Positions 241-64,000 of a stretch of 64,000 bases of DNA are shown here, piece by piece. A program made the translations under genes and the position numbers. The stretch spans positions 18,866 through 82,865 of the forward strand of contig JBGSRC010000001.1 in assembly GCA_041737745.1 (NCBI GenBank). Reading direction: 5' to 3'. The notes beneath the pieces were generated by a model, which saw only the letters and a list, made by a program, of their open reading frames with translations, was not told the DNA's origin and made no database searches. Position 1 is the first letter of the stretch. Each line of letters begins with the position of its first letter. Source of the DNA: Candidatus Caenarcanales bacterium. GTDB taxonomy: Bacteria; Cyanobacteriota; Vampirovibrionia; Caenarcaniphilales; Caenarcanaceae.

Positions 241-378
241 GAGTTATTTCCTCTTGTTGGGTTTAGTCAAGTTTTTTAGCATAGCTCAGTTTTTGCCGTG
301 AATGGTCAGAGCTAACAAAAAGCAAATATTTGTCACCGAAAGCAGGCACCAAATAGACTAATATATTGTCTGTATCTA

Positions 379-2373
379 ATGAGCGTTTCCAAACGCATAT
401 TCCAAATAATATTTATGAAAGCATTACTCAGCTTCTCTCTATTGGCCTTGCTTTTCAGCCAAGCGCTGCCTTCCCGTGCTGAAGGGACAGTTTTACCGCT
501 AGATGAGATATCAGCCGAACAAGCCGCAAAGTTGGCTAAAGATGAAGAAGTGCTAGCCAGTGACCCGAACAAATCGATCGGGAATTTCGACAAAGCAATC
601 ACCATAAATGAGATCCAAGTAGCCGGCAATCAAATGATCCCAACTGAGGTGATCATGCAAAACATCAAGTCACGCGAAGGCTCCCGCTTTAGCCGCCGAA
701 AAATAGCATTTGACCTCAAATCGCTCAATGAGATGGGCTATTTCGATAAAAACAAACTGCTCGCTATTCCGATCCCACAAGGCGAAGAAGGCGTGATCTT
801 GCGCATTCAGGTAGTGGAAAACGCCCCTGTAACAGGACTGATCGTCTCCGGCACAGACGTGCTTGACAAAGCCCAGATCGAAGAATTTCTCACCCCTCTA
901 GTGGGCTTGCCCCGCAGCACAGTGCAAATCAAAAGCGCCGTAGATATGATCGAAAAGGTCTATCACGAAAAAGGCTATATGCTGGCGGCCGTCACTGAGC
1001 TTCACTTCGATCCAGATGGTTTTCTGACTGTCTCAGTGGACGAAGGAAAAATCTCTGAGCTTCAGTTTGAGGGCAATGAACGAACCCAAGAGAGCTATTT
1101 GCGCAAGATCGCCCCCAAAGATTTCACCGAAGGTAAGCCCTATAACGAAGAACAAGTCGCTAAGTTCATGGAAGGCCTCAAACGTTCTGGTTTTTTCAAG
1201 GATGTCACCCGCGAAATCAAGCCGAACCCAGAAGACCCCAGCAAGCATATATTGTCTTTCAAGATCGAAGAACAACGTACCAAGCAGCTTAGTCTTGGAA
1301 CCGGTCTAGGAACGCAAAATGGCTTTTTTGGTCAAGTTGGTTTTACTGAGCCGCATTTTAGAGGACAAGGAGAGACGCTCAGCGCCAACGTTACAGCCGG
1401 TACTGGTCTTTTGACCGCTCTGGACGGAGATAATGGTGGTAGATTTGCTCGCCGAGGCGATTTTCGTTTCAATGTCAGCTACGCCGATCCTTTCATCGGT
1501 GACAGCGACAAATCTTTTAGTGCCAGCAGTTCGGCTTTTCAGCAAGGAAGTTTTTTGGTTGACTCATCCATTCAACGTACACTGAAAGGGGGAGTTACTT
1601 TCGGGATGCCCGTACCAAAGCGCGATGATTGGTTCTTTACAGTCGGGCTTTTGGGCAGCACAAACAATATGATCTCAGCCGGTACAGCCGCTCAAGATCA
1701 GCTTCAGCGTTCATTGGTGGAAAGAGGAAGAAGCCAAGCAAATGCTCTTACCGAAGCGCAAGGACTCAGACGGAATCAGCTCCAAGACGGTTTCTATCTC
1801 GACATCACGCCCAGTCTGGTCTACCGAAAAATCGATGATGCTGGCACAGGCTGGCGCAATACTTTCTTTGCCGGTCCCTCTGTCGGTTCTGCTGGTTCTT
1901 ATGCAAGTGCTGGCGTAGATTTGCGGCGCTATGAGTCACTCACCGATGATGGTTGGATGTTCAAGAACGCCTTTCACGCCGAATCCTTGCTCGGCGATCC
2001 GGCCGGTTTCCGTCTCTTGAAAGCTGGTGGTCCTTATGGGGTGCGCGGTTATAGACAGTTTACAGACGTGGGTGTGGGTAGTACCAGTGTCAGCAATACC
2101 TTTGAGTTTTCTATGCCTATCACTATTCCCAAGGCGCCGCTCAAAGACGTCAAGTTGGCGCTTTTCAGCGATCTTGGTTTAGTGGCTGGAGAAAGCTTCC
2201 TCAACGGTCTCTATGACAGGCGATCTGTGCTAGCCAGTGTGGGAATTGGTCTGGAGATCAATATTCCGCTAGTTGGTCCTTTGCGGATCGACTATGGTAT
2301 TCCGCTGCTTCGTAACGATAACCGGAGCTTTTTCAGCGGCCGAGTTACCATCAATCCCGGCAATCAGTTATAA
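379..2373 (+). CDS. bamA: Outer membrane protein assembly factor BamA (Omp85 family, POTRA repeats plus C-terminal beta-barrel)
   Basis: 664 aa with a signal peptide. POTRA-like segments (INEIQVAGNQMIPTEVIMQNIKSREGSRFS...) and a C-terminal surface-antigen barrel ending in an aromatic residue. Followed by an skp homologue, as in bamA-skp operons. Confidence 0.8.
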   Translation: MSVSKRIFQIIFMKALLSFSLLALLFSQALPSRAEGTVLPLDEISAEQAAKLAKDEEVLASDPNKSIGNFDKAITINEIQVAGNQMIPTEVIMQNIKSREGSRFSRRKIAFDLKSLNEMGYFDKNKLLAIPIPQGEEGVILRIQVVENAPVTGLIVSGTDVLDKAQIEEFLTPLVGLPRSTVQIKSAVDMIEKVYHEKGYMLAAVTELHFDPDGFLTVSVDEGKISELQFEGNERTQESYLRKIAPKDFTEGKPYNEEQVAKFMEGLKRSGFFKDVTREIKPNPEDPSKHILSFKIEEQRTKQLSLGTGLGTQNGFFGQVGFTEPHFRGQGETLSANVTAGTGLLTALDGDNGGRFARRGDFRFNVSYADPFIGDSDKSFSASSSAFQQGSFLVDSSIQRTLKGGVTFGMPVPKRDDWFFTVGLLGSTNNMISAGTAAQDQLQRSLVERGRSQANALTEAQGLRRNQLQDGFYLDITPSLVYRKIDDAGTGWRNTFFAGPSVGSAGSYASAGVDLRRYESLTDDGWMFKNAFHAESLLGDPAGFRLLKAGGPYGVRGYRQFTDVGVGSTSVSNTFEFSMPITIPKAPLKDVKLALFSDLGLVAGESFLNGLYDRRSVLASVGIGLEINIPLVGPLRIDYGIPLLRNDNRSFFSGRVTINPGNQL

Positions 2374-6086: not shown

Positions 6087-7313
6087 TTATAACGAGTATT
6101 TAGCTTTTGGGTCAAGTGATTCACTAGTTTGTTCCGCCAAAAGATCAAAGATCATCCAACTATAAATCTCCCTAGAATCAAGCTCAGGATGAAGCTTGTC
6201 AGCATATAAAGCCCCCATACCCCTCGGTCTGCGCCAATCAAGGTGATCTAACCCGTAAAAGACTCGGTTCAAAGAACCTCCCCTCAAACAAAAATCATTG
6301 CTGGGAAATAAACAAGAAAGCTCAGCGTCGCGCAGCTCAGAGGGCTCACACTGCTTAAGCCAAAGCGCGCTAGCAACAGGTACAACCCCATCGTTGAGCC
6401 GCCATGAATCACGCCAAGCCGGATCTTCACCCTCTTCGATCGGATCGGCAATCCAGCGATTGAGCTGACGCATAGAAGCGTGCCTTTCCAAAAATAACTT
6501 CGGTAAATCTTCACTGAACACAAAGAGCCCCCTCTTGATCGGGTTTCCTTTAGCGTAAACGGGTTTCTTGTACGAAGCGTAAAACATAAAACGATCGAGG
6601 CCACTGGGCTCACTGAGCGCTAAAGCTTCTGCGGGAGCACTATAATCCACCAAGGCTCCGTCAAAGTTATCCCAAGCCTGTTCTTTGATTGCGTACTTGT
6701 ATTTGCGGGATAGATCGCCCAAGATACTCATGTAAAGGGCGTTGAAGGGGGGCGGCTCTTTGGCTATCGCTTTGCTCAGATAGGGAATAGTCAGCACTGG
6801 CGTTCCATGGTGTGGAGCGGCCACTGTCAGCACCTTTCTGGTCAGCGAATTGATTTTAGGGTTTTTAGTTAGCAGCTGACGAACAATTAAGCCCCCTTGG
6901 CTGTAGCCGACAAAGCTAAAGCGCTCAATGTTCGGGTGCTCGATCAAAATCTCTTCAAGGCCAGTTTCTAATAGACTTGCCGCTTGATTTAGCTCCATCC
7001 AGCCGTCATAGCGAAGCACAAAGAGACTATATGGTTTAGTCGAGTTTGGCTCTAGGCTGGTTTGTTGCCGCCATGCTTCCCAAAAATATTTCCATTCATA
7101 GAGCTGGTCGGTGAGCCCGATTCCGTTTAGACCGGGGAGTAAAATTATTGCTTCTTTGGCTTCACCTGTAGCATTTGGGTCAATTGCTCTGAGCGAGTTC
7201 ACCGCTTGCGTTTTGCCCGATCTGGCTGTGCTCGAATAGGTTTTAGCTAGTGCTTGAAATTCGAGGCCAAATAGAGCCAGCAGCAAGAGAATAATTTTGA
7301 GGCGTAGATCCAT
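6087..7313 (-). CDS. Secreted alpha/beta-hydrolase (lipase / palmitoyl-thioesterase-like, GYSQGG nucleophile elbow)
   Basis: Signal peptide MDLRLKIILLLLALFGLEFQALA. A GxSxG-type motif FSFVGYSQGGLIVRQLL resembling PPT/lipase families. 408 aa. Confidence 0.5.
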   Translation of the reverse strand: MDLRLKIILLLLALFGLEFQALAKTYSSTARSGKTQAVNSLRAIDPNATGEAKEAIILLPGLNGIGLTDQLYEWKYFWEAWRQQTSLEPNSTKPYSLFVLRYDGWMELNQAASLLETGLEEILIEHPNIERFSFVGYSQGGLIVRQLLTKNPKINSLTRKVLTVAAPHHGTPVLTIPYLSKAIAKEPPPFNALYMSILGDLSRKYKYAIKEQAWDNFDGALVDYSAPAEALALSEPSGLDRFMFYASYKKPVYAKGNPIKRGLFVFSEDLPKLFLERHASMRQLNRWIADPIEEGEDPAWRDSWRLNDGVVPVASALWLKQCEPSELRDAELSCLFPSNDFCLRGGSLNRVFYGLDHLDWRRPRGMGALYADKLHPELDSREIYSWMIFDLLAEQTSESLDPKAKYSL

Positions 7314-7403
7314 CGATCAGTAGGAAGGCTCAGTGACTGATAACAAATCTAGCACCCTTTAGGCTTACTGAGAGAGCGTCTTCCGTGTTAGTGTTCTTTT
7401 ATT

Positions 7404-11997: not shown

Positions 11998-12960
11998 CTA
12001 CCAATAACCACGAACAGGCTGGCCCTGCTGAGGAGCAGCGTAAGTAGGAGCAGGAGGTGCTGGCAAATAACGCTTGTAAGGAATAGGAGGTGGCACAAAG
12101 TTAGCCTGCGCAATCACAGGACAACCAGGTGAACCAACATAGAAATCACCAGAACAATGAGGCTGTGCCGGTCTTTTTACCCGTGTAGTCCCCCAAGTAG
12201 CGCCAATTGAAGTTCCACCAGCAACACTCTCAGAATCAGTAGCACTACCACCGATGCTAGCTCCTATTCCGGTGCTGTAGCTTCTAACTGTTTCAGCGTA
12301 AGTACAGTTCAGATTGCCGACTAGATTTGCGGAATTTTTGGAAGCGATACGCGCTAAGCCGACTAGTGCAGCCTCAGTTGTGGCATATTCTTCCATGAAG
12401 ACATAACCGGTTCCGAGATAGCTGACGCAAGAAGGAGGAAGATTGGTGTCAAGTCCACAAACAATGATGGCACCGGACGGAACACTAGGACTAGCGCTGC
12501 TAATGGCTGAGGCTATGTATTCTTTCTCGTCATAAATTCCAAAAAGATAATCTTTGATTCTTGCTCTAAGTGGCGCACCGACGTTTACAACGCGACAGCG
12601 CGAATAGATCGAGTTGTCATTGATGGTCTTGGTCGGGTGAAAAAGTATATGAGGAGGAGTGAAATTCCATGGCCCATGAAAGAGCTGAGTATGCGAATAA
12701 GCACTAGGCGACATTAAGACGGCTTGGGTAGAAGGAGCGATGAAGCCCGAACTGTAACCTAGACCGGCTCCACTCTCAACGAGCACATTGCTTATTGAGC
12801 CACTGTTGCTGAGAGCGTTGTTCGTTCCCACCTGCGAGTTAGGGCCATTTGAGATAGCTCCGACCTGTGTGTCGGATTTACTCATAAGGGGGGTAAACAT
12901 TGTTCCCGCTAACAACAAGAGCGAGAGACTGATCTTCGTACCTAAAAGTCTTTTTGTCAT
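11998..12960 (-). CDS. Hypothetical secreted protein (Gly/Ser/Thr/Ala-rich, Pro-rich C-terminus)
   Basis: N-terminal signal-like segment MTKRLLGTKISLSLLLLAGTMFTPL. No recognisable catalytic motif. 320 aa single ORF. Confidence 0.4.
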   Translation of the reverse strand: MTKRLLGTKISLSLLLLAGTMFTPLMSKSDTQVGAISNGPNSQVGTNNALSNSGSISNVLVESGAGLGYSSGFIAPSTQAVLMSPSAYSHTQLFHGPWNFTPPHILFHPTKTINDNSIYSRCRVVNVGAPLRARIKDYLFGIYDEKEYIASAISSASPSVPSGAIIVCGLDTNLPPSCVSYLGTGYVFMEEYATTEAALVGLARIASKNSANLVGNLNCTYAETVRSYSTGIGASIGGSATDSESVAGGTSIGATWGTTRVKRPAQPHCSGDFYVGSPGCPVIAQANFVPPPIPYKRYLPAPPAPTYAAPQQGQPVRGYW

Positions 12961-13126
12961 AGCTTTATATTTCTTAAGGAGTAATCCCTATGCTTTTTGT
13001 TCCACAAATTGAGACCAGCTATGCGGCAAATCCTCTTTTCCTAAACCTAACAACCTAGAATGCTTGATTTATCTTGAGTGTGGGGCTGAAGCAAAGTAGA
13101 ATAGTCTTAAGATAGGAGAAAAGTTT

Positions 13127-15618: not shown

Positions 15619-17178
15619 TCAAATCCAACGGAAGAAATGATGCTTAGAATCGTTTAGCCCCACTATCTTCTCCGGATGAAAACGAAACTCGACTTCCTTC
15701 GAAGAAATATTTAGCCCATAAAACAAAGGCGCCCAATACACAAATGACCAAACGATACTGGCAATCAGACCCCAGACCAGAAGCCTTACCCAGCGCCATC
15801 TAGACTGCAAGAGATTAGTAAAAACCAAAGCCAAAGCACAAAAAGCAAAACAAACAGCCGGCAAGTAATGGTAAAGAAAAAGACAACGCTTGAGTCCCAA
15901 AAAAGGAAAATACAAAAGAGAAAAATTGAGCAGCAAAAAAACCTGAGTAAATAAATCACTACGCTTACTAGCCGGCAAAAGCCTAAAGTGTCTTGCAATA
16001 GGCGAAACAACAAGCCCAATGACAATAGGCACAAAAGCTAAAATCCCAAACCACCACAAAAGCGGATTCCCCATCCCAATCACAGCCCGAGTAAAGCCAG
16101 TGCGTCCGAGTGCAGCTGGGCTAGTCTCATAGACGTAAGCGATAGGCCGAAGCATAATAGGCCAGCCAGTAGCCACTGCGCAATAGGGATGAATGCTCTG
16201 AGGGTCAGTCTTGCCCAGCCCAAGGTTGTGGTGATAATCGTAAATGCCCTTATGATAGTTGTAGAGCTCACTGGTCTTCAGTTTATTTATCTGAAAATGT
16301 GGCGCTAGGACAAGCAAGTAAGCGAGCAGAGGAATCAGTCCAAAGCAAATAGGCAAGCTCAGTGCAGGCAGCCAAGGATAAGCAGCTCGTTTATTGAAGA
16401 GCTCAGTGATTTTCAGAAAACCAAAAAGACTAAGCAGCAGCTTGCGCGATCTAGGCAAAAAGAGCAAACAAAGACGCGAAGCAAAGCCGATCCCCAACAG
16501 AGCAAAAACAGCCCCCAAATAGCCCAGTCCGCTCCATTTGCAGCCGACAGAAAGACCCAGCGAAAGCCCAGCGCCTAAGTGCCAAAGCAGACGATGCAGT
16601 TGATTTGTTTTGCTCTGGAAGCCTTTCAGAAAAAGCAAGAGCCCTAGCAGGCCAAAGAAAATGAGGGCGATATTGTTGAACGCATAACGGCTCTCAGTCA
16701 GCAAAAAACCATCGAGCAAGGTGAGTAGACCAGCCAGCAGCCCAAAAGTACGGGCTCTAAGTTCTCTCTGTCCACTGAGACGGGCTAGATTGAGCGCTAT
16801 GCCAGCCATAAAAAGCGGAATGAAGCTGCCAATCAGCGCGTTAGCGCAACGATAACCGAAAGGCCCCTTCAGATAATCATCGGGAGCGAGATTGACGCCC
16901 AGCAAAAAAGCCAGTTCATTGGAGAGCTTGGTGCCAAGAGCGATGATCAGCTTTCCTAGAGGCGGATGAACATCATAAAAGACCTGCTGGTTTATGTAAT
17001 CGACCGCAAAACGGGCGAAATACACCTCGTCAAAGACAAAGAAATCAAAACGATCTAAGATCCAAAAGCGCATAGCCAGCGAAAGCCCAAGCAAAATCAC
17101 TAGCAAAATCTTGTAGCGGGCAAGTAGAAAATCACCGAGAGCACGCAACGAATAAGGCTTGGCTATAAGTTCCATCAT
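15619..17178 (-). CDS. GT39/GT83-type (PMT/ArnT-like) membrane glycosyltransferase
   Basis: The loop after TM1, FDEVYFARFAVDYINQQVFYDVHPPLGKLIIALG, carries the DE...HPPLGK signature of dolichyl/undecaprenyl-phosphate-sugar-dependent GT-C transferases. More than 10 TM segments. Start assigned to Met (MMELIAKP) at 17178, overlapping the leuS stop. The ORF extends to 17313. Confidence 0.6.
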   Translation of the reverse strand: MMELIAKPYSLRALGDFLLARYKILLVILLGLSLAMRFWILDRFDFFVFDEVYFARFAVDYINQQVFYDVHPPLGKLIIALGTKLSNELAFLLGVNLAPDDYLKGPFGYRCANALIGSFIPLFMAGIALNLARLSGQRELRARTFGLLAGLLTLLDGFLLTESRYAFNNIALIFFGLLGLLLFLKGFQSKTNQLHRLLWHLGAGLSLGLSVGCKWSGLGYLGAVFALLGIGFASRLCLLFLPRSRKLLLSLFGFLKITELFNKRAAYPWLPALSLPICFGLIPLLAYLLVLAPHFQINKLKTSELYNYHKGIYDYHHNLGLGKTDPQSIHPYCAVATGWPIMLRPIAYVYETSPAALGRTGFTRAVIGMGNPLLWWFGILAFVPIVIGLVVSPIARHFRLLPASKRSDLFTQVFLLLNFSLLYFPFLGLKRCLFLYHYLPAVCFAFCALALVFTNLLQSRWRWVRLLVWGLIASIVWSFVYWAPLFYGLNISSKEVEFRFHPEKIVGLNDSKHHFFRWI

Positions 17179-20132
17179 CAAAACACCACATTGACCAGTC
17201 TGCCGGGGACGATTATCACTTTTTTGGTGGGATTGGCTCCTAGTCTGGCGCAAATCTTGGCGTTGCTGAGCGCTAATCTTTCCAGTTCTTCGCTGCTGGC
17301 TGATTTTGAGCAACTGATCGCATCTACTTTTTTGCCATTGATCTGCAAAACCAGCTCAAAGTTTTCGTCAACAACACACTCAGGATCGAAGCTAGGCCAT
17401 GCGCTCTGGTGCACAAAGCCCTCCAAGCCCACTAACCCCCAACATTCTTGGGTGAGATGAGGAGCGAATGGAGCCAAAAGCTGCAGGAAATTTTTTAGAG
17501 CAAAGAGCTTGACTGAAGCCTGACAGACCAGCTCTTGGCGGGTGAGTATATTTAGCAGCTCAAAGAGTCGAGCGATGGCCGTATTGAAGGCATAACGGTC
17601 AGCTTGCAAGTCGTGACTGACAGCTCTAATAGTCTTGTGCACTGCTCTGATGAGCTCTGCTTCGCCCTCTTCTAGACTGGCCAAATCAGCACTGGCAAAC
17701 TCTTGAGCTGGAATGTTTTGTAGTTTGTCAGCCTCAGAGCTGACTAGGCGCCAGATTCGCCCCAAAAACCGTGACTGTCCACGGGCTCCATCTTCTGACC
17801 ACTCGATTTCGTCACTGGGAGGACCGGCAAAGAGCATGAAAAGCCTCGCAGCGTCAGCTCCATGTTCGGCCACAAAAGAGTCTATGGCCACCACATTGCC
17901 GCGTGACTTGGACATTTTGGCCACCTTGCCCTCCTTGGGGCTGTGCATAGTCACCATCCCTTGGCTGAGGAGACGAGTGAAGGGCTCAGAAAAATCGAGC
18001 AAACCGACGTCACGGAGCGCCTTAGTGAAAAAACGGGCATACAAGAGATGCAAGATGGCATGCTCGATCCCACCGACATATTGGTCTACTGGCAACCAGC
18101 GCTTGAGGGCCTCAGCCGAGAAGGGCTCTGACTGGTTCTGGGCGTCAGCAAAACGTAAAAAATACCAACTAGAACACACAAACGTGTCCATGGTATCGCT
18201 CTCGCGAGTAAGCTTTTCGCCAGTTTTGGGGTCTGTATAGCTGAGCCAGTCGGCGCATTCGCTCAGTTTTTTGTATTCGCTATTTTTTGGGAGCTCCACT
18301 GGAAGCTCTTCGTAGGCTACTGCTTTCGCTTTACCCTCTGCGTCGTAGACAAGCGGAATAGGCGTTCCCCAATAGCGCTGTCTGCTCACTAGCCAGTCTC
18401 TGAGTCTGTATTGAATTTTTAGACGGCCGAAGCCAGCTTGCTGGGCGTAAGCAGCCATTTCTTGTTTGGCCTGACTTGAACTCAGTCCGGAAAAAGCTCC
18501 AGAAGAATGGGTGTAACCGTAATCGCAATAGGCCGCACCGATAGTCAAATTCTTGACATAAAACACATCGGCAGCCACATTGTCGTTGTAGCGTTCAGTG
18601 GGGACGAAACCACAAGACTGGTAGAGAGCATTGGCGGGGGCAAGCACGACGCGACTATCGAGATAGACTTCCTTGAAGCCCAAGCCTCTGGCCTGCTCGT
18701 CAAAGAAACTGATCAATTGGCGAGCAAGTCCAAGACCACGAGCACTAGGTGCAATGAACATCCTTCTCAGTTCGCAACGATCGGCGTCAAGCGGCCTGAG
18801 TGAGATTGATCCTAAGATTTCTTGGCTATCTTTTCGGCGGAGAATCCAAAAGATATTGCCGTTGACGGCGTATTCAGAGAGGCTCTGATCGATTTCTGAG
18901 GCTTGCACGCCATAGTCGCTTTTTAGGTTTGCAAAATATTGGCCGAGAATCAGCTCACAGTCTCTGAGGTGTGTTTCATTGAGCGGGTCGATGCGCTGTA
19001 GCAGATACTCACTAGGTAGAGCTCCAAGCCCAGCCTTGGCGGCAATCACCGGCTTAATCGGCAAATGATATTTATTGGCGAAGAGAAAATCTCGCTCATC
19101 GTGAGCCGGTACGCCCATCACCGCTCCAGTGCCATAGTTGCCGAGGACATAATCCGCTATCCAGACAGGCACCCGCTCGCCACTGTAGGGGTTGATCGCA
19201 TAAGAACCGGTGAAGACGCCTGTCTTATCCCCTTGTTGTTGGGTGCGGTCAAGGTCGCTCAAAGCGGCGCTTCGCGCCCTGTACTCGTCGACCTTTCGGC
19301 GCTGAGCGGGGTGAGTGATCTCAGCTACCAGTTCGTTTTCGGGAGCCAGAACGAGATAGCTGACGCCGAAGATCGTATCTAATCTGGTGGTGAAGACGGT
19401 GATTTTTTTTGGTGAGCCTTCGAAAACAAAGTCGATTTCCGCCCCTTCAGAGCGCCCAATCCAATTCCTTTGCATGGTCTTCACCTGCTCTGGCCATTCT
19501 TTTAGGAGCTCTAGATCGTTGAGGAGCTCTTCGGCATAGACTGTCACTTTGAAGAACCATTGGGCTAAGAGCTTCTTTTCGACCAAGACCTCGGAGTGTC
19601 GCCAACAGTAGCCGTCTTCAACCTGTTCATTAGCGAGCACAGTGCCGCAGGCTGGGCACCAGTTGACCGGTGATTCTTTGCGATAGACCAGACCTTTTTC
19701 GTAAAACTTGAGAAAGATAAACTGAGTCCAACGATAATAATCTTTGTGGCAGGAAGCTAGTTCTCGTGTCCAATCAAAGCTGGTGCCTAGTGATTTTAGC
19801 TGGCGACGCATATTGGCCATATTCGCCTCAGTCCAGTCGCCCGGGTGAATGCCTTTGTCTTGGGCGGCATTTTCGGCCGGAAGACCAAAGGCATCGAAGC
19901 CCATTGGGTTAAGTACATTGAAGCCTTGCATGCGCTTGAAGCGGCTGATCACGTCAGCGATGGTATAGACTCTCGCATGTCCCATGTGCAAGTCCCCGCT
20001 CGGATAGGGGAACATCACTAGCGAGTAGAATTTTGGCAGTGGTGATTCTTCTTGTGCTTTGTCTATGCCGCTTTCAGCCCATAGCTTTTGCCATTTTTTT
20101 TCTAGCTCTGAGGGGGAATATTGGTCTGACAT
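17178..20132 (-). CDS. leuS: Leucine--tRNA ligase (LeuRS) with an in-frame GNAT acetyltransferase-like insertion
   Basis: HMGH (HIGH) and KMSKS motifs, a CP1 editing domain (TTRLDT...[30 protein letters not shown]) and [15 protein letters not shown]. 984 aa. Residues ~372-530 form an extra ~155 aa module with GNAT motif A ([19 protein letters not shown], matching Q/R-x-x-G-x-G/A) and YQSCGF motif D. Confidence 0.85.
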
Positions 20133-20238: not shown

Positions 20239-21355
20239 ATGGACGAACAAGAACTAAAAAGCACAGCCTCCCTTGCCCGCGAGCGCCTAGAAGCTGCCCG
20301 CGACTTTCTTTGAGCAACGTGGCGTCTTTCAAGAAGTCTCTCTGCTAGAAGCCAGCCTTCAAGATCCCGCTCTCTGGGAAAAGCCCACTGAGCTAGGCCA
20401 AATCAACCGTAAACTCTCCCACCTCAAACAAAAAATCAGTAATCTATCCCTCTGGAACGATCTCTTGGAAGAAATAGATCTAGCGCTTGAGTTGACTGAT
20501 CCAGCTGACTTCCCCAAAATTCTCCCCGACTATTTCACCAAACTAGCCACGATGAACGGCGAAATGGAGCGCTTTGAACTCGAACAGCTGCTTACTGGCA
20601 CTTACGATCAGGCGGCCGCTCTGGTCTCCATAAATGCTGGAGCCGGTGGCACAGACGCTCAAGATTGGGCTGAGATGCTTCTACGCTTGTATTTTCGTTG
20701 GGCTGAACGCCAAAGTTTCACCGTAGAACTACTAGAGAGCTCACCTGGTGAAGAAGCGGGACTGAAATCAGCTAGCTTCAAGGTGATCGGCCTGAACGCC
20801 TTCGGCTTTTTGCGTATGGAAAAAGGAGTGCACCGCCTCGTGCGCAAATCACCCTTCAAATCGAGCGGAGACAGTAGGCAGACTAGCTTTGCTGGGCTTG
20901 AGGTTTCGCCTATTTTGCCGGATCTAGCGCATGAGATCGAGCTGAAAGATGATGATCTAGAAGTCTCTACGATGCGCTCTGGGGGAGCTGGTGGCCAAAA
21001 CGTTAACAAAGTGGAGACGGCTGTCCGGATCAAACATATCCCTACGGGTATTAGCATTCGTTGCGATCAGGAGCGTAGTCAGCTCCAGAACAGGGAGAGG
21101 GCTTTGGATATGATCCGTTCGAAGTTATTATTGCTCAAGATCGAGGCTAGGGAAAAAGAGATAGCGTCTATCAAGGGGAAGTCTGGGTCAGCTGGTTTCG
21201 GATCTGATCAGGTGATTCGTTCTTATGTTTTGGATGAGGGTCGGATTAAAGATCCTCTTACTAAGGCTGAGACGCGTGACACGCAACGGGTCTTGGATGG
21301 TGAGGTGATGGATTTTATTTTTGCTCGTTTGAAGTATTTTGCTTCGCAAAGCTGA
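20239..21355 (+). CDS. prfB: Peptide chain release factor 2 with programmed +1 ribosomal frameshift
   Basis: Frame 0: ATG 20239 ...ARDFL then CTT TGA at 20308..20313. The +1 frame continues from 20312 ([15 protein letters not shown]...) into the listed ORF 20465..21355, which carries the SPF and GGQ motifs. Classic RF2 autoregulatory frameshift site. Confidence 0.85.
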
Positions 21356-36246: not shown

Positions 36247-38160
36247 TTAGTTAGGTGGCAAGGCGAAAGCGGGGCAGGCTGCATTTCTTGGTGCAACAAC
36301 TGTTGTTTCACAAGTAGTAGTAGTGTTGCCCGCTGGGTCGGTAACTGTAACAAGATCTCTTCTGATTGTTTCTCGAAAACAGCCGCATTGCTTGAGATAG
36401 TTACAGTCGATACGGACATTCATTGGGTTGAAGGCCGTATAAGGTGTATTTGACCAGACTTGAGCTACAGTGCTGATCATGGTCGCTGCGTCCACTCGAA
36501 CAAAAAAACCACACGGTTCTGGGTCAGGAGTTCCACCACAATTATCCTCAATGACACAGGATGAAAGCGGACAAGCGCTCAAGTTTGTCGAAAGTATTGC
36601 TGCCTGAAGCTGACCACTGTCTAAAAGCTGATTGCCATAGGAAGCAGTTCTATTACAAATAAGATTGAATTGATTGGAGGGGGTATTTCGGATAGCAACG
36701 ATAGGACCAGCATTATTTGCAGGAGCAGGTGGGGCTGGAAAGTTCACTAGATCGAAAACAGTTCCAGCTCCGGGAAGGGCAACAGGCTGGGCTGGAAACA
36801 TACCGTTGAAGCTAGCAGGCTGGTCAGTGCCATCTGTAGTCAGGATGCGGTTTTGGGTGAGAGGGACACTCACAGAATTGACGTAGTTAGGGCTAGTAGA
36901 TAGGGCTGTGCGGGTGGCAAAGCGAGCACCGACTACGATCAGTGGGTCAAGCGAACCGGCATTGCGGAGATTGCGCACGCCGATCAGCTGAGCTGGACTC
37001 TCTGAACCGGAAGCCAATCCAGCTGGCCCAATACTACCAATCGTTGAATTAAAGCCTCCAGCCACTGCACGAACATATTCAGTTCCTAGGATCGGTATAG
37101 CGTTACCGTTGTATGGAGGCAAAGTGGCAGTACTGATACCGGTGAAGATCGCATTTCGTCTAGGTCTCCCCAAAGTACCGATAGGCGTTCGCAGATAAGA
37201 ACCAGTAGGTGGATGAATGAATTGCGCTTCATCATTGGGACAATTTAGTCCAAGGCATTCTAAATAAGGCACAGGTCCAGCATTGAACTCTACCTGCCCA
37301 TAGGGCTCGCGCCTATCTGGTCCTCCGTCTTGAGAGAGAGATTCTAGATCGTAACTGCGCCCTGTTCCACTATCAAAATTAGCGCCGGGTTCAGAAAGAG
37401 CCGAAGCCGTGGCCTCCAAATAATAACCATTGAAAACTGGGCTGTTTGGATCACCGGAAAAGAAGCGACGAAAAGCGGTAAAGAGACTCTGAGCAAACAT
37501 CGGCCAAGCGGCTGGACTATGAAGCTTCACAAAGTAGCTCACTGTTCTTCTGGCTGGATCAATCACCGCGTAGCAGGCATTGTATTCTCGGATCTCATCA
37601 GCACGTTGAGCAAAGGGTCTTGATTGGCCAGGGTTAGCTGGGTCTGGCTCGACATTAGTCAGTCTAGTACCTCCAGCTCTCAAGCCCGGTACTAGTCCTA
37701 CTATTCCAATACCAGCTGGGAGGGGAACATTGGAAGTGCGCGGTGTTTCGAGGTTCGCTAACTCTTCTATAGAAAGCGGCGGGCCATTGTCGACATTGCC
37801 GCCCGCAGCTGTTTTAGCTGTTCCTTGGCGAGAAACGTTCACGTCGATGATTCCACTTCTGATACCAGTCAGATTCGCCAGAAGAGGGTCACGAAATTCA
37901 TTTCTATATCCCGGTGGCAAAGGGCCAATGGCATTGAAAGCAGCATTGCAGCGACCGCGAAAATCTTCATACGGAAAATTAGGATTATTGGCGGCAGAAC
38001 GAGCAATAAGCTGAGCAGCCGTAAAGAGCGTTGAGCGTTGCATATAGCTATAGGCCAGCTCATAGAAGATCATGAACAAAAAGAAATAAATTAAAATCAA
38101 TAGCGGCAATTGAAAAGTCGTTGAGCCGCGCTTTTTACGTTTAAAATTTTCTGAAATCAT
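36247..38160 (-). CDS. Large hypothetical membrane-anchored/secreted protein with TadE/pilin-like N-terminal segment
   Basis: N-terminus KRGSTTFQLPLLILIYFFLFMIFYELAYSYMQRS resembles TadE/TadG-like prepilin-type hydrophobic segments. The remainder is Pro/Gly/Asn-rich with no known motif. 637 aa. No other tad genes nearby. Confidence 0.35.
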   Translation of the reverse strand: MISENFKRKKRGSTTFQLPLLILIYFFLFMIFYELAYSYMQRSTLFTAAQLIARSAANNPNFPYEDFRGRCNAAFNAIGPLPPGYRNEFRDPLLANLTGIRSGIIDVNVSRQGTAKTAAGGNVDNGPPLSIEELANLETPRTSNVPLPAGIGIVGLVPGLRAGGTRLTNVEPDPANPGQSRPFAQRADEIREYNACYAVIDPARRTVSYFVKLHSPAAWPMFAQSLFTAFRRFFSGDPNSPVFNGYYLEATASALSEPGANFDSGTGRSYDLESLSQDGGPDRREPYGQVEFNAGPVPYLECLGLNCPNDEAQFIHPPTGSYLRTPIGTLGRPRRNAIFTGISTATLPPYNGNAIPILGTEYVRAVAGGFNSTIGSIGPAGLASGSESPAQLIGVRNLRNAGSLDPLIVVGARFATRTALSTSPNYVNSVSVPLTQNRILTTDGTDQPASFNGMFPAQPVALPGAGTVFDLVNFPAPPAPANNAGPIVAIRNTPSNQFNLICNRTASYGNQLLDSGQLQAAILSTNLSACPLSSCVIEDNCGGTPDPEPCGFFVRVDAATMISTVAQVWSNTPYTAFNPMNVRIDCNYLKQCGCFRETIRRDLVTVTDPAGNTTTTCETTVVAPRNAACPAFALPPN

Positions 38161-38286
38161 AAGGGTGCTGGGGAAAGCAAATCTTACCTGTCATATATTA
38201 GATTCCCCAAAAACCAAATAGTTCTGCTGAACTTTGGCGAACTTGTTAGGGGTTATACTAATTTGCAGTAGATTATTTGGTGTGAT

Positions 38287-57947: not shown

Positions 57948-59735
57948 TCAAGATTCAATCACTTGATAGCCTCTAGCACCTCTATCTATTGCACTCACTT
58001 CATAGCCACTAGCGCTAGTATCTATAGCAAAAGTGAGTCCCATCAAGCTTTTTAGTACTGTTTTGGCTGCTTCTTGGTCATTGGCTTGTTCACCAGAGTA
58101 AGGAATTCCTTTTTCTTTGATTTTTAGTGAGGCAATGCTCTCTTCGCCTGCTTTACTAACAAGGGTGAGGCAGAAAATACCGCTTTCTTCTTTGAAGGTT
58201 AGTTTAGTGGCTTTGAAGAGGGCTGGTGTTGCTGAATCGAAGAGTTTTTTGGCTACTTCATCAGTGCTGGCTGGTTCAAGCAGATTTTTGATGGCGAAAG
58301 CGTAGAAAGCTTGTTCATCTGGGGTTTTTTCGGGGATATTTTTCGCTAAAGTGGTGAAGGCTGTGTAGTTTTCTAGTTTATTGGGGTTGAGGCGAGGGAT
58401 TATATTCTTGTAGAGTTCAGTCCATTTGGATGCAGCGCCTGTTGGTTCTGTGCTTTGGATTAGGGCTGAGACACTGGAACTGACGTCATTTAGGCTTTTG
58501 CCGGTGGCAAATTGATTGATTTGATTGAGGTTTTTCAGGCCATATGATGTATTGTCTTCTGTTGTTTTTGGGGCTAAATAACTTTCAAAACGGCTAAATT
58601 GTTTTGGGTCTGATAGTACTGGCAGAGCGTCGGTTTTAGTTGTGTCTATTCCTTCGAAATATTTCTTGTAGGTGGCGAGTTTTGCTGTTTTCTCTTCAGC
58701 TGAAAGCTTAAGCGGCTCAATGAAGCTGTGAAGCAGAGTATCGGCGATCACCAAGCGCGCTTGGATCGGAACAGTTTCTAGTTTGCTGGGATCTAGATAT
58801 GGCTTTATTTTTTCGCTGGCTAGACGATTTAAGACAAACTGGAGGGGACCGGAATATTCTGGGTTGTCGGTGAAGGTTTGGAGGGCTGCTTTATCAGCAA
58901 AGAGCTTATTTTCGCCTACTAATAGATTTTCAAATTCTGTCAGTATTCCTGTTGTTGGTTCTGTTATTCCGGCAGGCAATGTGATTTTATTTGTTGCTGC
59001 TGGTGTTTGAGTTGTTGTCGGAATTGTGGTTGTGGTGGTGGTTGTTATTGTTGTTGCTGTAGGAGTTTTTATTGTTTCTGTTTTTGTTTCAGTGGTTGCT
59101 AATGGTGAGTTTGTTTGTGTTGAGGTGGTGCTTGGATTTTCGGGGGTGCATTTGCAGGAGGGATCTGCTGTGGGGGTGGTGCTTGTTCCGGAGGAGGTGG
59201 TAGCTTGAGTTTCTTCTTCTTTTGACTTTATTAAGCCATCAGTCAATGCCTTGAATTTTGTTTCATCGTAGTCATAAGAGACTATTTGTTTACCGTCAAC
59301 GTTTCTATTGAATAAAACGGAACCTAATTCAGCTTCTAGTTTTACATTTGGGTTATAAGAATTTTCTGTGGCTCCATCAAAATTGGAGCTGGTCTTAGTA
59401 ACTGTTCTTTTGTCTTCTCCCTTTTCACTCAAAGTCCCTATTCCATAAAGAAACTGGTCAAGTTCAGTCTCGTTTTCAATTAAATAATTTCCTGTTGCAT
59501 TTGAAAAACTATTGAGAACAGCATTGCCATCATTAGCAACATCATTCGTGAAAGCGGCCGTATCGCGAAGAAGTCGATGCTTCAACACCTTAAGATCGAG
59601 AGTTTTGCCTGCAGCAAAGGCTTCTTTTGCTTTTTCTTTGAATTTAGCTATGCCTTTGGTGATTTGGCTCTCTTCCAAAGCCTTATTGAAGGTCTTTAAC
59701 TGCTCAGCGTTAGGGTTGAAGTTGGCTGCGTTCAT
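57948..59735 (-). CDS. Hypothetical Lys/Thr-rich protein with mucin-like poly-Thr/Pro tract
   Basis: Single long ORF, 640 aa to the first ATG at 59870. MNAANFNPN at 59735 is a plausible start. Central tract TTTTTTIPTTTQTPAATNK. No clear signal peptide. AT-rich relative to its neighbours. Confidence 0.4.
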   Translation of the reverse strand: MNAANFNPNAEQLKTFNKALEESQITKGIAKFKEKAKEAFAAGKTLDLKVLKHRLLRDTAAFTNDVANDGNAVLNSFSNATGNYLIENETELDQFLYGIGTLSEKGEDKRTVTKTSSNFDGATENSYNPNVKLEAELGSVLFNRNVDGKQIVSYDYDETKFKALTDGLIKSKEEETQATTSSGTSTTPTADPSCKCTPENPSTTSTQTNSPLATTETKTETIKTPTATTITTTTTTTIPTTTQTPAATNKITLPAGITEPTTGILTEFENLLVGENKLFADKAALQTFTDNPEYSGPLQFVLNRLASEKIKPYLDPSKLETVPIQARLVIADTLLHSFIEPLKLSAEEKTAKLATYKKYFEGIDTTKTDALPVLSDPKQFSRFESYLAPKTTEDNTSYGLKNLNQINQFATGKSLNDVSSSVSALIQSTEPTGAASKWTELYKNIIPRLNPNKLENYTAFTTLAKNIPEKTPDEQAFYAFAIKNLLEPASTDEVAKKLFDSATPALFKATKLTFKEESGIFCLTLVSKAGEESIASLKIKEKGIPYSGEQANDQEAAKTVLKSLMGLTFAIDTSASGYEVSAIDRGARGYQVIES

Positions 59736-59849
59736 GGCTGAATATCCTCTCTCAGAAAAATCAAATCTATATATCAAATATGGAATACCAAGAATAGTAA
59801 AATGACAAGAAAGGATTAAAGTAAAGATATTGAAAATAGCAAAAAACAG

Positions 59850-60617
59850 ATGCCTAAGACACTTCTCCACATCAAAAACCTCACCCTAGCCATAAACGGC
59901 AAAGCAATCCTCCAAAATATCAACCTAGAACTAGAACTCGGTCAAAGACTAGCCCTAGTAGGAGAATCAGGCTCAGGCAAAACAATGCTCGGCTCAGCGA
60001 TCCTAGGCTTACTCCCCCCCCAAAGCCTCCTAGGTGGCCAAATAAGCTACAAAAACAAACCCCTCACACAACAAGACAAAAGCGCACTCAGAGGCAAAGA
60101 AATAGCCTATATCCCCCAAAATCCCTTTACAGCCCTAAACCCCGTCAAAAACATCGGCGATCATCTCCTAGAAACCATAGAAGTACTTTGCCCTAGCCTC
60201 CAACAACCAGCAAGAAAAGAACTAGCAAACGATCTGCTCACAAAAGTCCAACTAAAAGGCTGGCAAACAATGAAAGACCTCTACCCCTTCGAGCTCTCTG
60301 GTGGCATGGCTCAGCGTGTGATGGTGGCTCTTGCCCTTGTTGCCTCACCCAAGCTGCTGATAGCTGATGAGCCGACCACTGCGCTCGATCCAGAGACTCA
60401 AGCGGAAATATTGGCGCTAATCGAAGGGCTGGTAAACAAAGCTGAGATGACCTTGATCTTCATCACTCACGATCTAGCCATTGTGAAAGACCTCTGCGAG
60501 CGGGTTTGTGTGATGAAAACAGGACTGGTAGTGGAAGAAGGGGTCACTTCTCAGATCTTTCAAGCTCCCAGAGAGGTTTATACGCAAGAACTTTTGGCGG
60601 CGGCTTTTTATTTATAG
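59850..60617 (+). CDS. ABC transporter ATP-binding protein (Opp/Dpp-type nucleotide-binding domain)
   Basis: Walker A GESGSGKT, signature LSGGMAQRVMVA, Walker B LLIADEPTTALD, H-loop ITHD. 255 aa. No adjacent permease or solute-binding protein gene. Confidence 0.7.
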   Translation: MPKTLLHIKNLTLAINGKAILQNINLELELGQRLALVGESGSGKTMLGSAILGLLPPQSLLGGQISYKNKPLTQQDKSALRGKEIAYIPQNPFTALNPVKNIGDHLLETIEVLCPSLQQPARKELANDLLTKVQLKGWQTMKDLYPFELSGGMAQRVMVALALVASPKLLIADEPTTALDPETQAEILALIEGLVNKAEMTLIFITHDLAIVKDLCERVCVMKTGLVVEEGVTSQIFQAPREVYTQELLAAAFYL

Positions 60618-61717: not shown

Positions 61718-61837
61718 GCATTGTTAGTGATGGCCATTTAAGACGGGTGGCTATCCCTTCTTGGCTCTTGATTTGTTTAAAGTTTGAGGCAACAGGGCAA
61801 GTTTTGAATAGGTCTTTAACTAACATTGAGTAGAATC

Positions 61838-64000
61838 ATGCCTGCTGCAAAATTATTAAAACTTCTAAGTTTCTTTGCTCTCTTGAGCTTTCTGGTTTCT
61901 TGTAAAACCTGTCCTCCCGGTGACGTGGACTGTATAGTCAAAAACGTCTTTGGAAACAACGACAACGATAATTCGAGCGATGATGACACTATTACTGATG
62001 TCAATATTTCACCCGGAACTGGCTCGCCATCAGTGTCAGTCGGTGGCTCGCCATCAGTGTCAGTAGGTGGTTCGCCATCAGTGTCAGTCGGTGGCTCGCC
62101 ATCAGTGTCAGTAGGTGGTTCGCCATCAGTGTCAGTCGGTGCTTCGCCATCAGTAGCAGTAGGTGGTTCGCCGTCAGTGTCAGTAGGTGGTTCGCCGTCA
62201 GTGTCAGTAGGTGGTTCGCCATCAGTGTCAGTAGGTGGTTCGCCATCAGTAGCAGTAGGTGGTGGTTCGCCGTCAGTGTCAGTAGGTGGTTCGCCATCAG
62301 TGTCATTAGGTGGTTCGCCGTCAGTGTCAGTCGGTGGTGGTTCGCCATCAGTGTCAGTCGGTGGTGGATCGCCGTCAGTGTCAGTCGGTGGTGGATCGCC
62401 ATCAATTGTAAGAACATCTGACTGTGACGGTAGAGTGCCTCCAGTGACAGTCAATTCTATAAATACTGACGTAGCCTTGATTGCGCTGGCAGCATCAACC
62501 CTACAAACTTCATCGGCTAGTGAGATCAATGATTTTTTACTCACAGCAGGTTCACCACTCAGTGGCGATTATGCAAATCCTTTGTTGATCTCGCAAATAG
62601 CAAATTATGATTGGGACAATAACGGCAAGACTTCAGTAGAAGGCGATAGAGCTGATTTAGAGTATACGCTCTTGGTTTCTTTGCTACCGAATGCGGCTAA
62701 AACGCCTGAAATGATCGAAGAAGCGATCACAAAATCAAACAAATTGCCATTGCTTTTAAGCAGAGTACAGATTGGTCAGAATGCTTGCTTGTTTTGCGAG
62801 CTAAATTGCGGCGAAGATGGTTGCGTCACAGTCTGTGATGGCGATCCAGATGATGGAACAGGAGCAGGCGTAGGTGCAGGCGCTGGACCAAATGATGGAA
62901 CAGGTGCAGGCGTAGGTGCAGGAGCTGGACCAAATGATGGTACAGGAGCAGGTGCGGGTGTAGGCGCTGGACCAAATGATGGAACAGGTGCAGGCGTAGG
63001 TGCAGGCGCTGGACCAAATGATGGAACAGGTGCAGGTGTAGGTGCAGGCGCTGGACCAAATGATGGAACAGGTGCAGGTGTAGGTGCAGGCGCTGGACCA
63101 AATGATGGAACAGGAGCTGGCGTAGGTGCAGGCGCTGGACCAAATCCGACCCCAACTACTCCAAGTTGTAGTCCTCCACCGGTGCCTCTCAACGAAATAG
63201 ATGAAGCGGAATCACTGATCTCACTCATTGGTTTTATTAATCCAGAGTTTAGTTATGAAGAATTATTGGCTTCGATCGAAGCTGACTATGGAGTGATCCT
63301 AGACCCAACTTTTTTCACCCCTGAAAAAGTGAAATCAATTCAAGAATATGACTGGGATGGAGATGGCATTAAAGCTAGCACAAACGATTCAGCTTTAGTA
63401 GCAGCTGTCAGCCTAGCTAATAGACGTGGAGGCAATGCAACCAAACAATCAGTCGAAAACTATGTAAATAATATTCTGGAATTCGATCCGCCTCTAGTAG
63501 CGGCAAGCGAATGTGTTTTTGCGCCAGCAATTAACCCATCACCCAGTGAAGTAATAACAAGTCCAACGCCGAGTGCTCCAGTAACTAGTCCTTCAGCTTC
63601 ATCCAGTCCGGTAGTCTGTGACTGCCCTCCTGATGCAGGTTGCCCTCCGGGAGTAGAAGCTTCCTCTGAGACTTTTGAAGTAGACTGCGCTGCTGGAGGT
63701 TCTGGTGGCGGTGGAGAAGATGTCTTGAGTGGTGGATCGGACAGCATCACACTTCCAAGGAGACTTACATGCACTCGTTCAGTCTGTGGAAGCGTAAAAA
63801 CGCCTGAAGCAAGTCCTACACCTGATCTTTTGGGTTGCGGTGATACTTGTCAACCGGGCGCCGGAAATCCTATTGCTCTAGGAACTAATGAACCTGATTC
63901 TTTCGATCTAGATGCTGCCTCTACGGGCACCATTGATGGCGGAAATGGAGACGATAATTTCAATTATTCAGGAGCTAGTATTGGCGCTTTAGATACCTTC
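61838..64000 (+). CDS. Very large repeat-containing lipoprotein (partial; continues beyond window end), with (SPSVSVGG)~16 and (GTGAGVGAGAGPND)~7 tandem arrays and Ca-binding-like DWD(N/G)(N/D)G and GGNGDDNF motifs
   Basis: Codon-by-codon reading from ATG 61838 gives 721 codons with no stop to the window end. The N-terminus MPAAKLLKLLSFFALLSFLVSC is a lipoprotein signal with an LVSC lipobox. The non-repeat segments (62400..62850 and 63140..64000) are open only in this frame. The ORF track lacks this ORF because it has no stop inside the window. The minus-strand ORFs listed there are fragmented. Confidence 0.7.
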   Translation, partial: MPAAKLLKLLSFFALLSFLVSCKTCPPGDVDCIVKNVFGNNDNDNSSDDDTITDVNISPGTGSPSVSVGGSPSVSVGGSPSVSVGGSPSVSVGGSPSVSVGASPSVAVGGSPSVSVGGSPSVSVGGSPSVSVGGSPSVAVGGGSPSVSVGGSPSVSLGGSPSVSVGGGSPSVSVGGGSPSVSVGGGSPSIVRTSDCDGRVPPVTVNSINTDVALIALAASTLQTSSASEINDFLLTAGSPLSGDYANPLLISQIANYDWDNNGKTSVEGDRADLEYTLLVSLLPNAAKTPEMIEEAITKSNKLPLLLSRVQIGQNACLFCELNCGEDGCVTVCDGDPDDGTGAGVGAGAGPNDGTGAGVGAGAGPNDGTGAGAGVGAGPNDGTGAGVGAGAGPNDGTGAGVGAGAGPNDGTGAGVGAGAGPNDGTGAGVGAGAGPNPTPTTPSCSPPPVPLNEIDEAESLISLIGFINPEFSYEELLASIEADYGVILDPTFFTPEKVKSIQEYDWDGDGIKASTNDSALVAAVSLANRRGGNATKQSVENYVNNILEFDPPLVAASECVFAPAINPSPSEVITSPTPSAPVTSPSASSSPVVCDCPPDAGCPPGVEASSETFEVDCAAGGSGGGGEDVLSGGSDSITLPRRLTCTRSVCGSVKTPEASPTPDLLGCGDTCQPGAGNPIALGTNEPDSFDLDAASTGTIDGGNGDDNFNYSGASIGALDTF

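Follow-up and report, generated by a model that had tools for sequence, protein, structure and literature searches.

A predicted GNAT acyltransferase domain nested in the editing domain of leucyl-tRNA synthetase in a clade of Melainabacteria

Bacterial aminoacyl-tRNA synthetases are usually seen as architecturally conservative, and appended domains with a separate chemistry are known mainly from eukaryotes. Here we describe leuS, the leucyl-tRNA synthetase (LeuRS) gene in a 64-kb stretch of genomic DNA from a Candidatus Caenarcanales bacterium (the window, meaning the whole of the 64,000 nucleotides analysed), which encodes a LeuRS with a predicted GNAT-type N-acetyltransferase domain inside its CP1 editing domain. 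In family and domain order the window enzyme is like the canonical LeuRS of Thermus thermophilus (1H3N/2BYT) and Escherichia coli (4AQ7), with which it shares 35-39% identity and a TM-score of up to 0.86. The Thermus enzyme differs, however, in carrying an 11-residue loop in CP1 where the window LeuRS has an insert of 168 amino acids (aa), and in possessing a leucine-specific domain (Thermus residues ~580-633); this domain of ~55 residues, located before KMSKS, is absent from the window LeuRS (aa ~729-736).

The only named precedent that we found for a GNAT domain in an aminoacyl-tRNA synthetase is the NCBIfam model NF040702 ('ileS_w_GNAT'), which describes a curated isoleucyl-tRNA synthetase (IleRS), a sister class Ia editing synthetase, with an N-acetyltransferase domain. 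Compared with this model by profile score alone, the window LeuRS reaches 67.7 bits against a cut-off of 1999 through the shared N-terminal class I core, and it is not a member of the family. Because NCBI curates the IleRS with an N-acetyltransferase domain as an 'exception' model, class Ia editing synthetases may have acquired GNAT domains more than once. Stand-alone GNATs (3d8p, 8iym, 2q7b, YsnE 1yx0, PaiA 1tiq and the tabtoxin resistance protein 1ghe) have the same fold, length (~150-165 aa), CoA motif and Glu, Asp and Tyr positions as the LeuRS module, but they are free-standing and many are without a known substrate, whereas the LeuRS module has both termini spliced into a domain of another enzyme. 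The GNAT MccE2 confers immunity by acetylating aminoacyl nucleotides at their alpha-amine, which is an established mechanism (PMC8323819); the LeuRS module shows no specific sequence or fold affinity to MccE2/RimL-type GNATs, and leuS does not lie within an antibiotic gene cluster. The toxins TacT, AtaT and ItaT likewise use a GNAT fold to act on the product of an aminoacyl-tRNA synthetase (PMC7367177, PMC7595197), but they are two-gene systems with an antitoxin, whereas the LeuRS module is found inside a housekeeping gene, with prfB and a PMT-family glycosyltransferase gene as its neighbours.

A full-text literature search turned up no paper on a GNAT-containing LeuRS, in agreement with an earlier note on this DNA, made from the sequence alone, which had considered the architecture to be undescribed; the IleRS-with-GNAT family curated by NCBI stands as a parallel. 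The sequences themselves are already public under the plain LeuRS name, with no description of the architecture that we could find. What appears unusual, as judged from the sequences, is that the insert is a predicted second catalytic domain, that it is nested in an editing domain and that in relatives it is multiplied within one polypeptide. In other words, an essential translation enzyme has an apparently active, acetyl-CoA-using domain within its proofreading domain, and this addition has been kept in a clade, in up to three copies.

Position and fold of the inserted domain

The leuS gene is one unbroken open reading frame (ORF) of 984 codons plus stop on the minus strand (Table 1), as the earlier note had it and as the ORF list and translation bear out, and there is no second leuS copy within the window. 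Its product scores 999.3 bits against the NCBIfam model TIGR00396 leuS_bact (cut-off 548.4), in two stretches split by the insert, and Pfam recognises the class I catalytic core (tRNA-synt_1) at aa 13-226 and the anticodon-binding domain (Anticodon_1) at aa 826-946. The class I signatures HMGH (HIGH) and KMSKS, the latter in all five residues, are invariant in 63 aligned LeuRS, and so are T248, T249, R250, D252 and T253 of the threonine-rich editing motif TTRLDT and Asp345 (in AHD) of the CP1 editing pocket. The part played by the TTRLDT residues in editing we take to be established knowledge on LeuRS. A full-length AlphaFold2 model based on the 63-sequence alignment (mean predicted local distance difference test, pLDDT, 89.7; predicted TM-score 0.78) superposes on solved bacterial LeuRS, and best on the E. 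coli enzyme. The synthetic and editing motifs of the window protein are shown by these alignments to be intact, and to that extent it is a normal bacterial-type LeuRS.

When aligned to T. thermophilus LeuRS, aa 3-364 of the window protein correspond to Thermus residues 2-363, aa 533-729 to 375-579 and aa 736-983 to 634-875, and aa 365-532 stand in the place of the 11-residue loop, with a net gain of ~157 aa. The distance from IKPVI to YRLRDW is accordingly 211 aa in the window LeuRS versus 54 aa in Thermus, close to the ~155-aa extra module and the usual linker of ~50 aa that the earlier note had estimated. The same note had located the module at 18540-19020, equal to aa 371-531, and all the strings that it quoted are present in the protein (Table 1). 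However, it had put the module after the end of CP1, and this placement needs to be corrected. The Pfam profile of the LeuRS editing domain (tRNA-synt_1_2) matches aa 222-367 and covers only profile positions 1-144 of 185, but after removal of aa 365-532 in silico and a rescan, it matched contiguously over positions 1-184. Because excision of this segment makes the editing-domain match whole, the GNAT domain is nested within CP1, where it occupies a surface loop at roughly three quarters of the domain's length. Related insertion-free LeuRS have only a short loop at this position. An intein or mobile-element reading of the segment was rejected, since Pfam sees just GNAT families within aa 365-532 and no Hint or homing-endonuclease domain.

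The identity of the insert was established by profiles and by predicted structure. Acetyltransf_1 (PF00583) covers aa 424-509 at 52.5 bits (gathering score 20.7; E=7.4e-14), and Acetyltransf_7 (47.4 bits, cut-off 27) and Acetyltransf_10 (25.7 bits, cut-off 23.6) match in the same insert. Thus, among the Pfam families that the earlier note had named, Acetyltransf_1 and Acetyltransf_10 are above their cut-offs, but Acetyltransf_3, which we take to be the Pfam family with RimL/MccE-type enzymes, has no match in the window module. Moreover, DSSP assignment on the AlphaFold models gave the order beta1-alpha1-alpha2-beta2-beta3-beta4-alpha3-beta5-alpha4-(beta6)-beta7, that is, the full GNAT topology, with beta1 at 376-380, a long alpha1 at 386-407, beta2-beta3-beta4 at 427-460, alpha3 at 469-483, beta5 at 488-493, alpha4 at 498-506 and beta7 at 523-528; beta6 was not called as a strand of at least three residues and appears in the full-length model as a two-residue bridge only (aa 510-511). 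Across the insert the full-length model has block pLDDT values of 81-95, and a model of the module by itself averages 93.2, so that structure prediction, too, returns the GNAT fold. In a Foldseek comparison the module matched stand-alone GNATs (3d8p, HP0935/8iym, SACOL1063, 2q7b) over their entire length with TM-scores of 0.74-0.80, and of 0.76-0.80 for such proteins as 3d8p, 8iym and 2q7b. Because it matches complete stand-alone GNATs end to end, the insert is, in its modelled form, a whole GNAT domain rather than a fragment, and the claim of a complete in-frame GNAT fold is upheld by Pfam, by the AlphaFold topology, by Foldseek and by the CoA-motif and catalytic-type residues.

The stretch from EVYLDS to ALYQSCGF, which had been labelled motif D, is motif B (beta5-alpha4) in the usual GNAT nomenclature. 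The GNAT CoA-binding motif is defined as Q/R-x-x-G-x-G/A (PMC5370406), and the window module contains it between beta4 and alpha3 as R465-G-L-G468-L-A470, a putative site for the acetyl-CoA pyrophosphate and the same R-x-x-G-x-A that had been pointed out in the earlier note.

Relatives, insertion sites and conservation

With a metagenome-type assembly as the source, chimerism or mis-joining of the gene had to be considered, but such an artefact is effectively refuted by the continuous frame with LeuRS motifs in order on either side of the insert, by the presence of the identical 984-aa protein with the same neighbours in an independent assembly, by 15 diverged orthologues of the same layout from several data sources that share the insertion position, and by the uniform composition and codon usage across both junctions; the earlier note had also held an assembly error to be unlikely. 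The independent copy is carried by a 9.6-kb contig (Logan, public sequencing run), which keeps prfB on one side of leuS and the PMT-family glycosyltransferase gene together with a rhomboid gene on the other. In GC content, GC content at third codon positions (GC3) and codon usage the insert is indistinguishable from the rest of leuS, its codon-usage L1 distance being 0.413 versus 0.422 +/- 0.034 for equal-sized pieces of the gene. Recent horizontal acquisition was rejected because the codon usage and GC3 of the module equal those of the remaining leuS. The data show that the insertion is old and has been vertically inherited in the Melainabacteria clade that data submitters label Caenarcaniphilales.

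The relatives were recovered from a collection of 5.8 billion proteins with the full-length protein as query, and this search yielded 15 further LeuRS with precomputed GNAT matches, 51-58% identical to the window LeuRS. Where given, their source names are plain 'leucine--tRNA ligase' from Candidatus Caenarcaniphilales or Melainabacteria, the order described in PMC4040986 and a non-photosynthetic sister lineage of cyanobacteria. Scanning the 16 LeuRS with the window module revealed 21 modules, and the sequences show three insertion sites. Site 1, the CP1 loop used in the window, is filled in all 16 proteins, and in P0020 and P0022 it holds two tandem modules. Site 2, located just ahead of KIQYRLRDW, the strand leading back into the catalytic core, has modules in P0025 and P0028, and site 3, which follows LPVxLP within the Rossmann fold's second connective insertion, holds the third module of P0025. 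This protein is 1344 aa long with three separate, Pfam-confirmed GNAT stretches; P0028 has two modules. The modules of one protein are mutually 28-39% identical, as far apart as they are from the modules of other species, while the extra modules are kept between species (first tandem module, 62% identity; site-2 module, 85%). Because extra modules are conserved between species and copies in the same protein are only 28-39% identical, the duplications must be old.

Insertions other than GNAT modules also occur in these LeuRS. At site 3, P0024 has a complete DUF559/Vsr-like endonuclease domain (aa ~620-760; Pfam positions 3-107 of 109, E=3e-33), inserted in-frame after LPVTLP with glycine-rich flanks (PLLVKGGAGGG), and low-complexity in-frame inserts are present in P0022 (site 3) and in P0023. 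LeuRS seems to be an insertion hot spot in this clade, with the in-frame insertions possibly seeded by a mobile element.

To place the insertion-bearing enzymes, a distance-based neighbour-joining tree was built from 814 well-occupied columns of the LeuRS backbone, with the insert excluded. The 16 GNAT-bearing LeuRS and three insertion-free ones (P0033, P0035 and P0036) formed one clade with a bootstrap of 100/100, and monophyly of the GNAT-bearing LeuRS alone was never recovered. The three insertion-free proteins share all signature substitutions of the clade, including at least two replacements of conserved cysteine by threonine, at aa 590 and 637, which are found in the LeuRS of this clade whether GNAT-bearing or not; most other aligned Melainabacteria LeuRS keep these cysteines, which we take to be ligands of a zinc-binding insertion. 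The simplest reading of the tree is that one ancestral insertion at site 1 was followed by loss in a few lineages; alternatively, the insertion-free forms may be second copies in some genomes. Whether the insertion is lineage-wide had been raised as a question in the earlier note; it is present in 16 LeuRS of the clade and absent from the other three, and the segment is not a normal variable linker. For engineering, the CP1 loop 364-374 (Thermus numbering) is a useful position that tolerates whole-domain insertions, and since insertion-free relatives exist, the module should be excisable at natural boundaries.

Searches that started from other queries or databases returned a different set of proteins. 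In the 5.8-billion-protein collection, the insert alone and a 27-module profile found stand-alone GNATs only and missed even the window protein; a genome-contig scan with the full protein gave generic LeuRS of unrelated phyla and no GNAT-bearing locus, the window's own genome being likewise missed; and a metagenome-contig scan with the module found no relative. An exhaustive representative search with the module profile gave two LeuRS among the best 150 matches, the rest being single or tandem stand-alone 'GNAT superfamily' proteins. The best non-LeuRS matches to the profile (P0138-P0150) are free-standing tandem GNAT-GNAT proteins of ~300-340 aa, with E-values down to 4e-64 and with names that give no functional lead, and these could be the source family of the LeuRS modules, the tandem form included.

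Importantly, the residues expected of an active GNAT are preserved across the 21 modules, although these have diverged to pairwise identities of 25-87% (51-62% for the LeuRS backbone). Glu454 on beta4, Tyr504 on alpha4 (A-x-x-L-Y) and Lys527 are each present in 21 of 21 modules; position 492 at the end of beta5 (YLDS) is Asp in 16 and Glu in five; the first position of the CoA motif is Arg in 19 and Gln in two; and Gly468 is kept in 17, with S or K in the other four. When six stand-alone GNATs are added (27 sequences), Tyr504 is the sole invariant column. In the alignment to the tabtoxin resistance protein (1ghe), Glu454 falls on Glu92 and Asp492 on Asp130, which, together with a motif-B tyrosine, we take to be the proposed catalytic residues of that enzyme; Glu454 is a candidate general base and Tyr504 a candidate general acid. 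Because the CoA motif and the Glu, Asp and Tyr positions survive in so many diverged copies, the module is quite probably a working acyl-CoA-dependent acyltransferase. The pattern fits purifying selection on predicted CoA binding and catalysis and not a decaying structural insert, and the degenerate structural insertion that the earlier note had entertained is disfavoured by it.

Possible functions of the module

Clues to the substrate come from relatives and from placement. Profile E-values of the module to stand-alone GNATs reach 2e-18 at an identity of ~20%. In sequence and profile comparisons with solved proteins, uncharacterised GNATs make up most of the nearest relatives; next come enzymes that act on small amines and on antibiotics resembling amino acids (YsnE, PaiA, the tabtoxin resistance protein, streptothricin acetyltransferases and SpeG); matches to ArsN2 and to amino-acid N-acetyltransferases are weak, and protein acetyltransferases (HP0935, RimI and the N-terminal acetyltransferases, Naa) are also found among the relatives. 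In the 16 LeuRS, GNAT modules occur at CP1 or other connective polypeptide (CP) insertions only and never in the anticodon-binding or C-terminal domains, a placement compatible with action near the aminoacyl-handling sites and equally with mere tolerance of those loops for insertions. The modules are mostly acidic to neutral (median isoelectric point ~6), with no consistent RNA-binding signal.

The reading that we tentatively favour, by analogy with MccE2, is that the tethered GNAT N-acetylates an amino-acid-type ligand of LeuRS at its alpha-amino group, although we regard it as a possibility and not as a probable outcome. From its attachment in the region of LeuRS that surrounds the aminoacyl-handling sites, the module would acetylate the free alpha-amine of a ligand bound or released by the enzyme, the candidates being non-cognate, norvaline-like amino acids cleared by editing, or inhibitors that mimic leucyl-adenylate. 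Since the synthetase pockets would not recognise an acetylated alpha-amine, such a ligand would leave the futile cycle of activation and editing or, like the aminoacyl-nucleotide antibiotics acted on by MccE2, would be detoxified. If the module does act on LeuRS ligands, it would represent a new layer of translational quality control or a built-in antibiotic immunity, and would also tie acetyl-CoA metabolism physically and directly to tRNA charging. Several points weigh against this proposal. The closest solved structures are for the most part uncharacterised and in some cases protein acetyltransferases, and the window module lacks a match to Acetyltransf_3. A precise geometric link to one particular active site fits poorly with the presence of one to three copies at three sites. 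Three LeuRS within the same clade are without the module, and therefore either it is dispensable or those LeuRS are paralogues. Finally, hydrolytic editing already disposes of mischarged products, and the need for an extra acetylation is not obvious.

Self-regulation is an explanation that we consider rather unlikely; here, the GNAT domain would acetylate lysines, either in LeuRS itself (those within or close to the KMSKS loop, for example) or in a bound partner, and would thereby couple LeuRS to the supply of acetyl-CoA. Such a domain would make up a self-contained metabolic switch on translation. Pat/AcuA-type GNATs offer the analogy, as they switch off acetyl-CoA synthetase, and acetylation of LeuRS enzymes at lysines near KMSKS is known. 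The structural neighbours of the module include the protein acetyltransferases HP0935 and RimI and N-terminal acetyltransferases, and a tether at any point of the enzyme's upper half would be enough, in keeping with the three insertion sites. Moreover, the activity of E. coli aminoacyl-tRNA synthetases is reported to be modulated by lysine acetylation (PMC6209979). However, there is no sign of a co-evolved acceptor lysine, because a search for backbone residues kept throughout the 16 GNAT-bearing LeuRS and replaced in the three insertion-free ones returned none, the clade-specific substitutions being common to both; universally conserved lysines could still serve as acceptors. Nor does a deacetylase gene adjoin leuS.

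Just as improbable in our estimate is a passenger enzyme, an active GNAT with a substrate unrelated to leucine and tRNA, which would persist because the connective-polypeptide loops tolerate insertions and because fusion ensures co-expression with a housekeeping gene. The endonuclease domain of P0024 and the low-complexity insertions of P0022 and P0023, the varying number and position of the GNAT copies and the three clade members without a module would all suit such a passenger, and stand-alone single or tandem GNATs score about as high on the module profile as genuine LeuRS modules do. On the other hand, the catalytic positions are intact in every copy in spite of the divergence, the modules are confined to the CP region and never occur in the C-terminal half, and among the best module-search matches LeuRS is the only host protein seen to carry the module.

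We give distinctly less credence to a non-catalytic role, in which the GNAT fold would serve as a sensor of acetyl-CoA or CoA or as a structural or dimerisation element. The replacement of the motif glycine G468 by S or K in four modules and the tandem modules of some relatives are in its favour, as one half of tandem-GNAT enzymes is often inactive. Nevertheless, the Glu, Asp/Glu and Tyr positions, which matter for catalysis and not for folding, are kept in 21 of 21 modules, and the window module has the canonical R-x-x-G-x-A.

It is very unlikely that the module N-acetylates Leu-tRNA(Leu) or mischarged tRNA(Leu) at the acceptor end in the manner of TacT, AtaT and ItaT, with growth control or marking for peptidyl-tRNA hydrolase as the outcome. 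GNATs that acetylate the alpha-amine of aminoacyl-tRNAs are an established precedent (PMC7367177, PMC7595197, PMC9177977), and the module is located on the domain where the tRNA 3' end is received during editing; however, no toxin-type GNAT is present among the best 60 profile or the best 50 PDB fold matches, leuS has no antitoxin-like neighbour, the acidic to neutral modules show no consistently basic RNA-binding surface, and constitutive acetylation of its own product would amount to self-poisoning of the enzyme. Least convincing among the functional proposals, and highly improbable in our view, is a two-step acyl-transfer machine, for which the analogy is that class I synthetases can aminoacylate CoA-SH and that some GNAT folds use aminoacyl-tRNA (PMC5370406): LeuRS would hand leucyl-S-CoA or Leu-tRNA to the GNAT, yielding N-acyl-leucine or leucyl conjugates non-ribosomally. 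Within such a machine, the GNAT would transfer leucine to an acceptor or cap Leu-tRNA with an N-acyl group, and the one to three modules of an enzyme would act as transfer stations, either in succession or as alternatives.

Genes around leuS and feature coordinates

Table 1. Coordinates in the window of leuS, its parts and the genes mentioned in the text (residue numbers refer to the 984-aa LeuRS)
Feature	Residues	Window position	Strand	Basis or remark
leuS coding sequence	1-984 + stop	17178..20132	-	ORF list and translation; encodes LeuRS with nested GNAT domain
N-terminal half of Rossmann core and first ~3/4 of CP1	1-364	19041..20132	-	Thermus alignment, Pfam
HMGH (HIGH) class I signature	49-52	19977..19988	-	Alignment of 63 LeuRS
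Threonine-rich editing motif TTRLDT	248-253	19374..19391	-	Alignment of 63 LeuRS
Asp345 of CP1 editing pocket	345	19098..19100	-	Alignment of 63 LeuRS
Inserted segment (linkers and GNAT module replacing CP1 surface loop)	365-532	18537..19040	-	Thermus alignment
GNAT fold proper, beta1 to beta7	376-528	18549..19007	-	DSSP on AlphaFold models, Foldseek, Pfam
Glu454, candidate general base	454	18771..18773	-	Module alignment; 1ghe
Acetyl-CoA pyrophosphate-binding motif RGLGLA	465-470	18723..18740	-	Sequence; putative CoA site
Asp492	492	18657..18659	-	Module alignment; 1ghe
Tyr504, candidate general acid of motif B	504	18621..18623	-	Module alignment
Last quarter of CP1, return to core, KMSKS, anticodon-binding and C-terminal domains	533-984 + stop	17178..18536	-	
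KMSKS class I signature	739-743	17904..17918	-	Alignment of 63 LeuRS
HLPIKPVI	356-363			Quoted in the earlier note
24-letter beta4-alphaC string	454-477			Quoted in the earlier note
EVYLDSRV	488-495			Quoted in the earlier note
12-letter string	500-511			Quoted in the earlier note
SGAFSGL	544-550			Quoted in the earlier note
15-letter string	575-589			Quoted in the earlier note
PMT-family glycosyltransferase gene		15619-17313	-	Overlaps leuS 3' end
prfB (release factor 2)		20239-21355	+	Divergent, upstream of leuS
Long ORF without Pfam match		6090-7316	-	
Long ORF without Pfam match		12001-12987	-	
Long ORF without Pfam match		36250-38190	-	
Long ORF without Pfam match		57951-59885	-	
Long ORF without Pfam match		61820-64000	+	

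The surroundings of leuS in the window consist of ordinary chromosomal genes, such as those for Omp85/BamA, DnaG, GyrB, MnmE and GlgE, and interspersed with these housekeeping genes are several long ORFs (329-727 aa) that no Pfam family matches at E<=1e-5 (Table 1). The gene that follows leuS encodes a PMT-family (protein O-mannosyltransferase-like) membrane glycosyltransferase and starts at or within the last leuS codons; the start called for it in the independent assembly falls on the leuS stop. Since the glycosyltransferase start overlaps or abuts the leuS stop, the arrangement suggests that leuS is co-transcribed with this cell-envelope gene. On the other side of leuS, prfB displays the classic programmed +1 frameshift: a short ORF runs from the ATG at 20239 to CTT TGA (CTT at 20308, TGA at 20311), and the +1 frame then carries the body of release factor 2, with its PCRF and RF-1 domains, as far as 21355.

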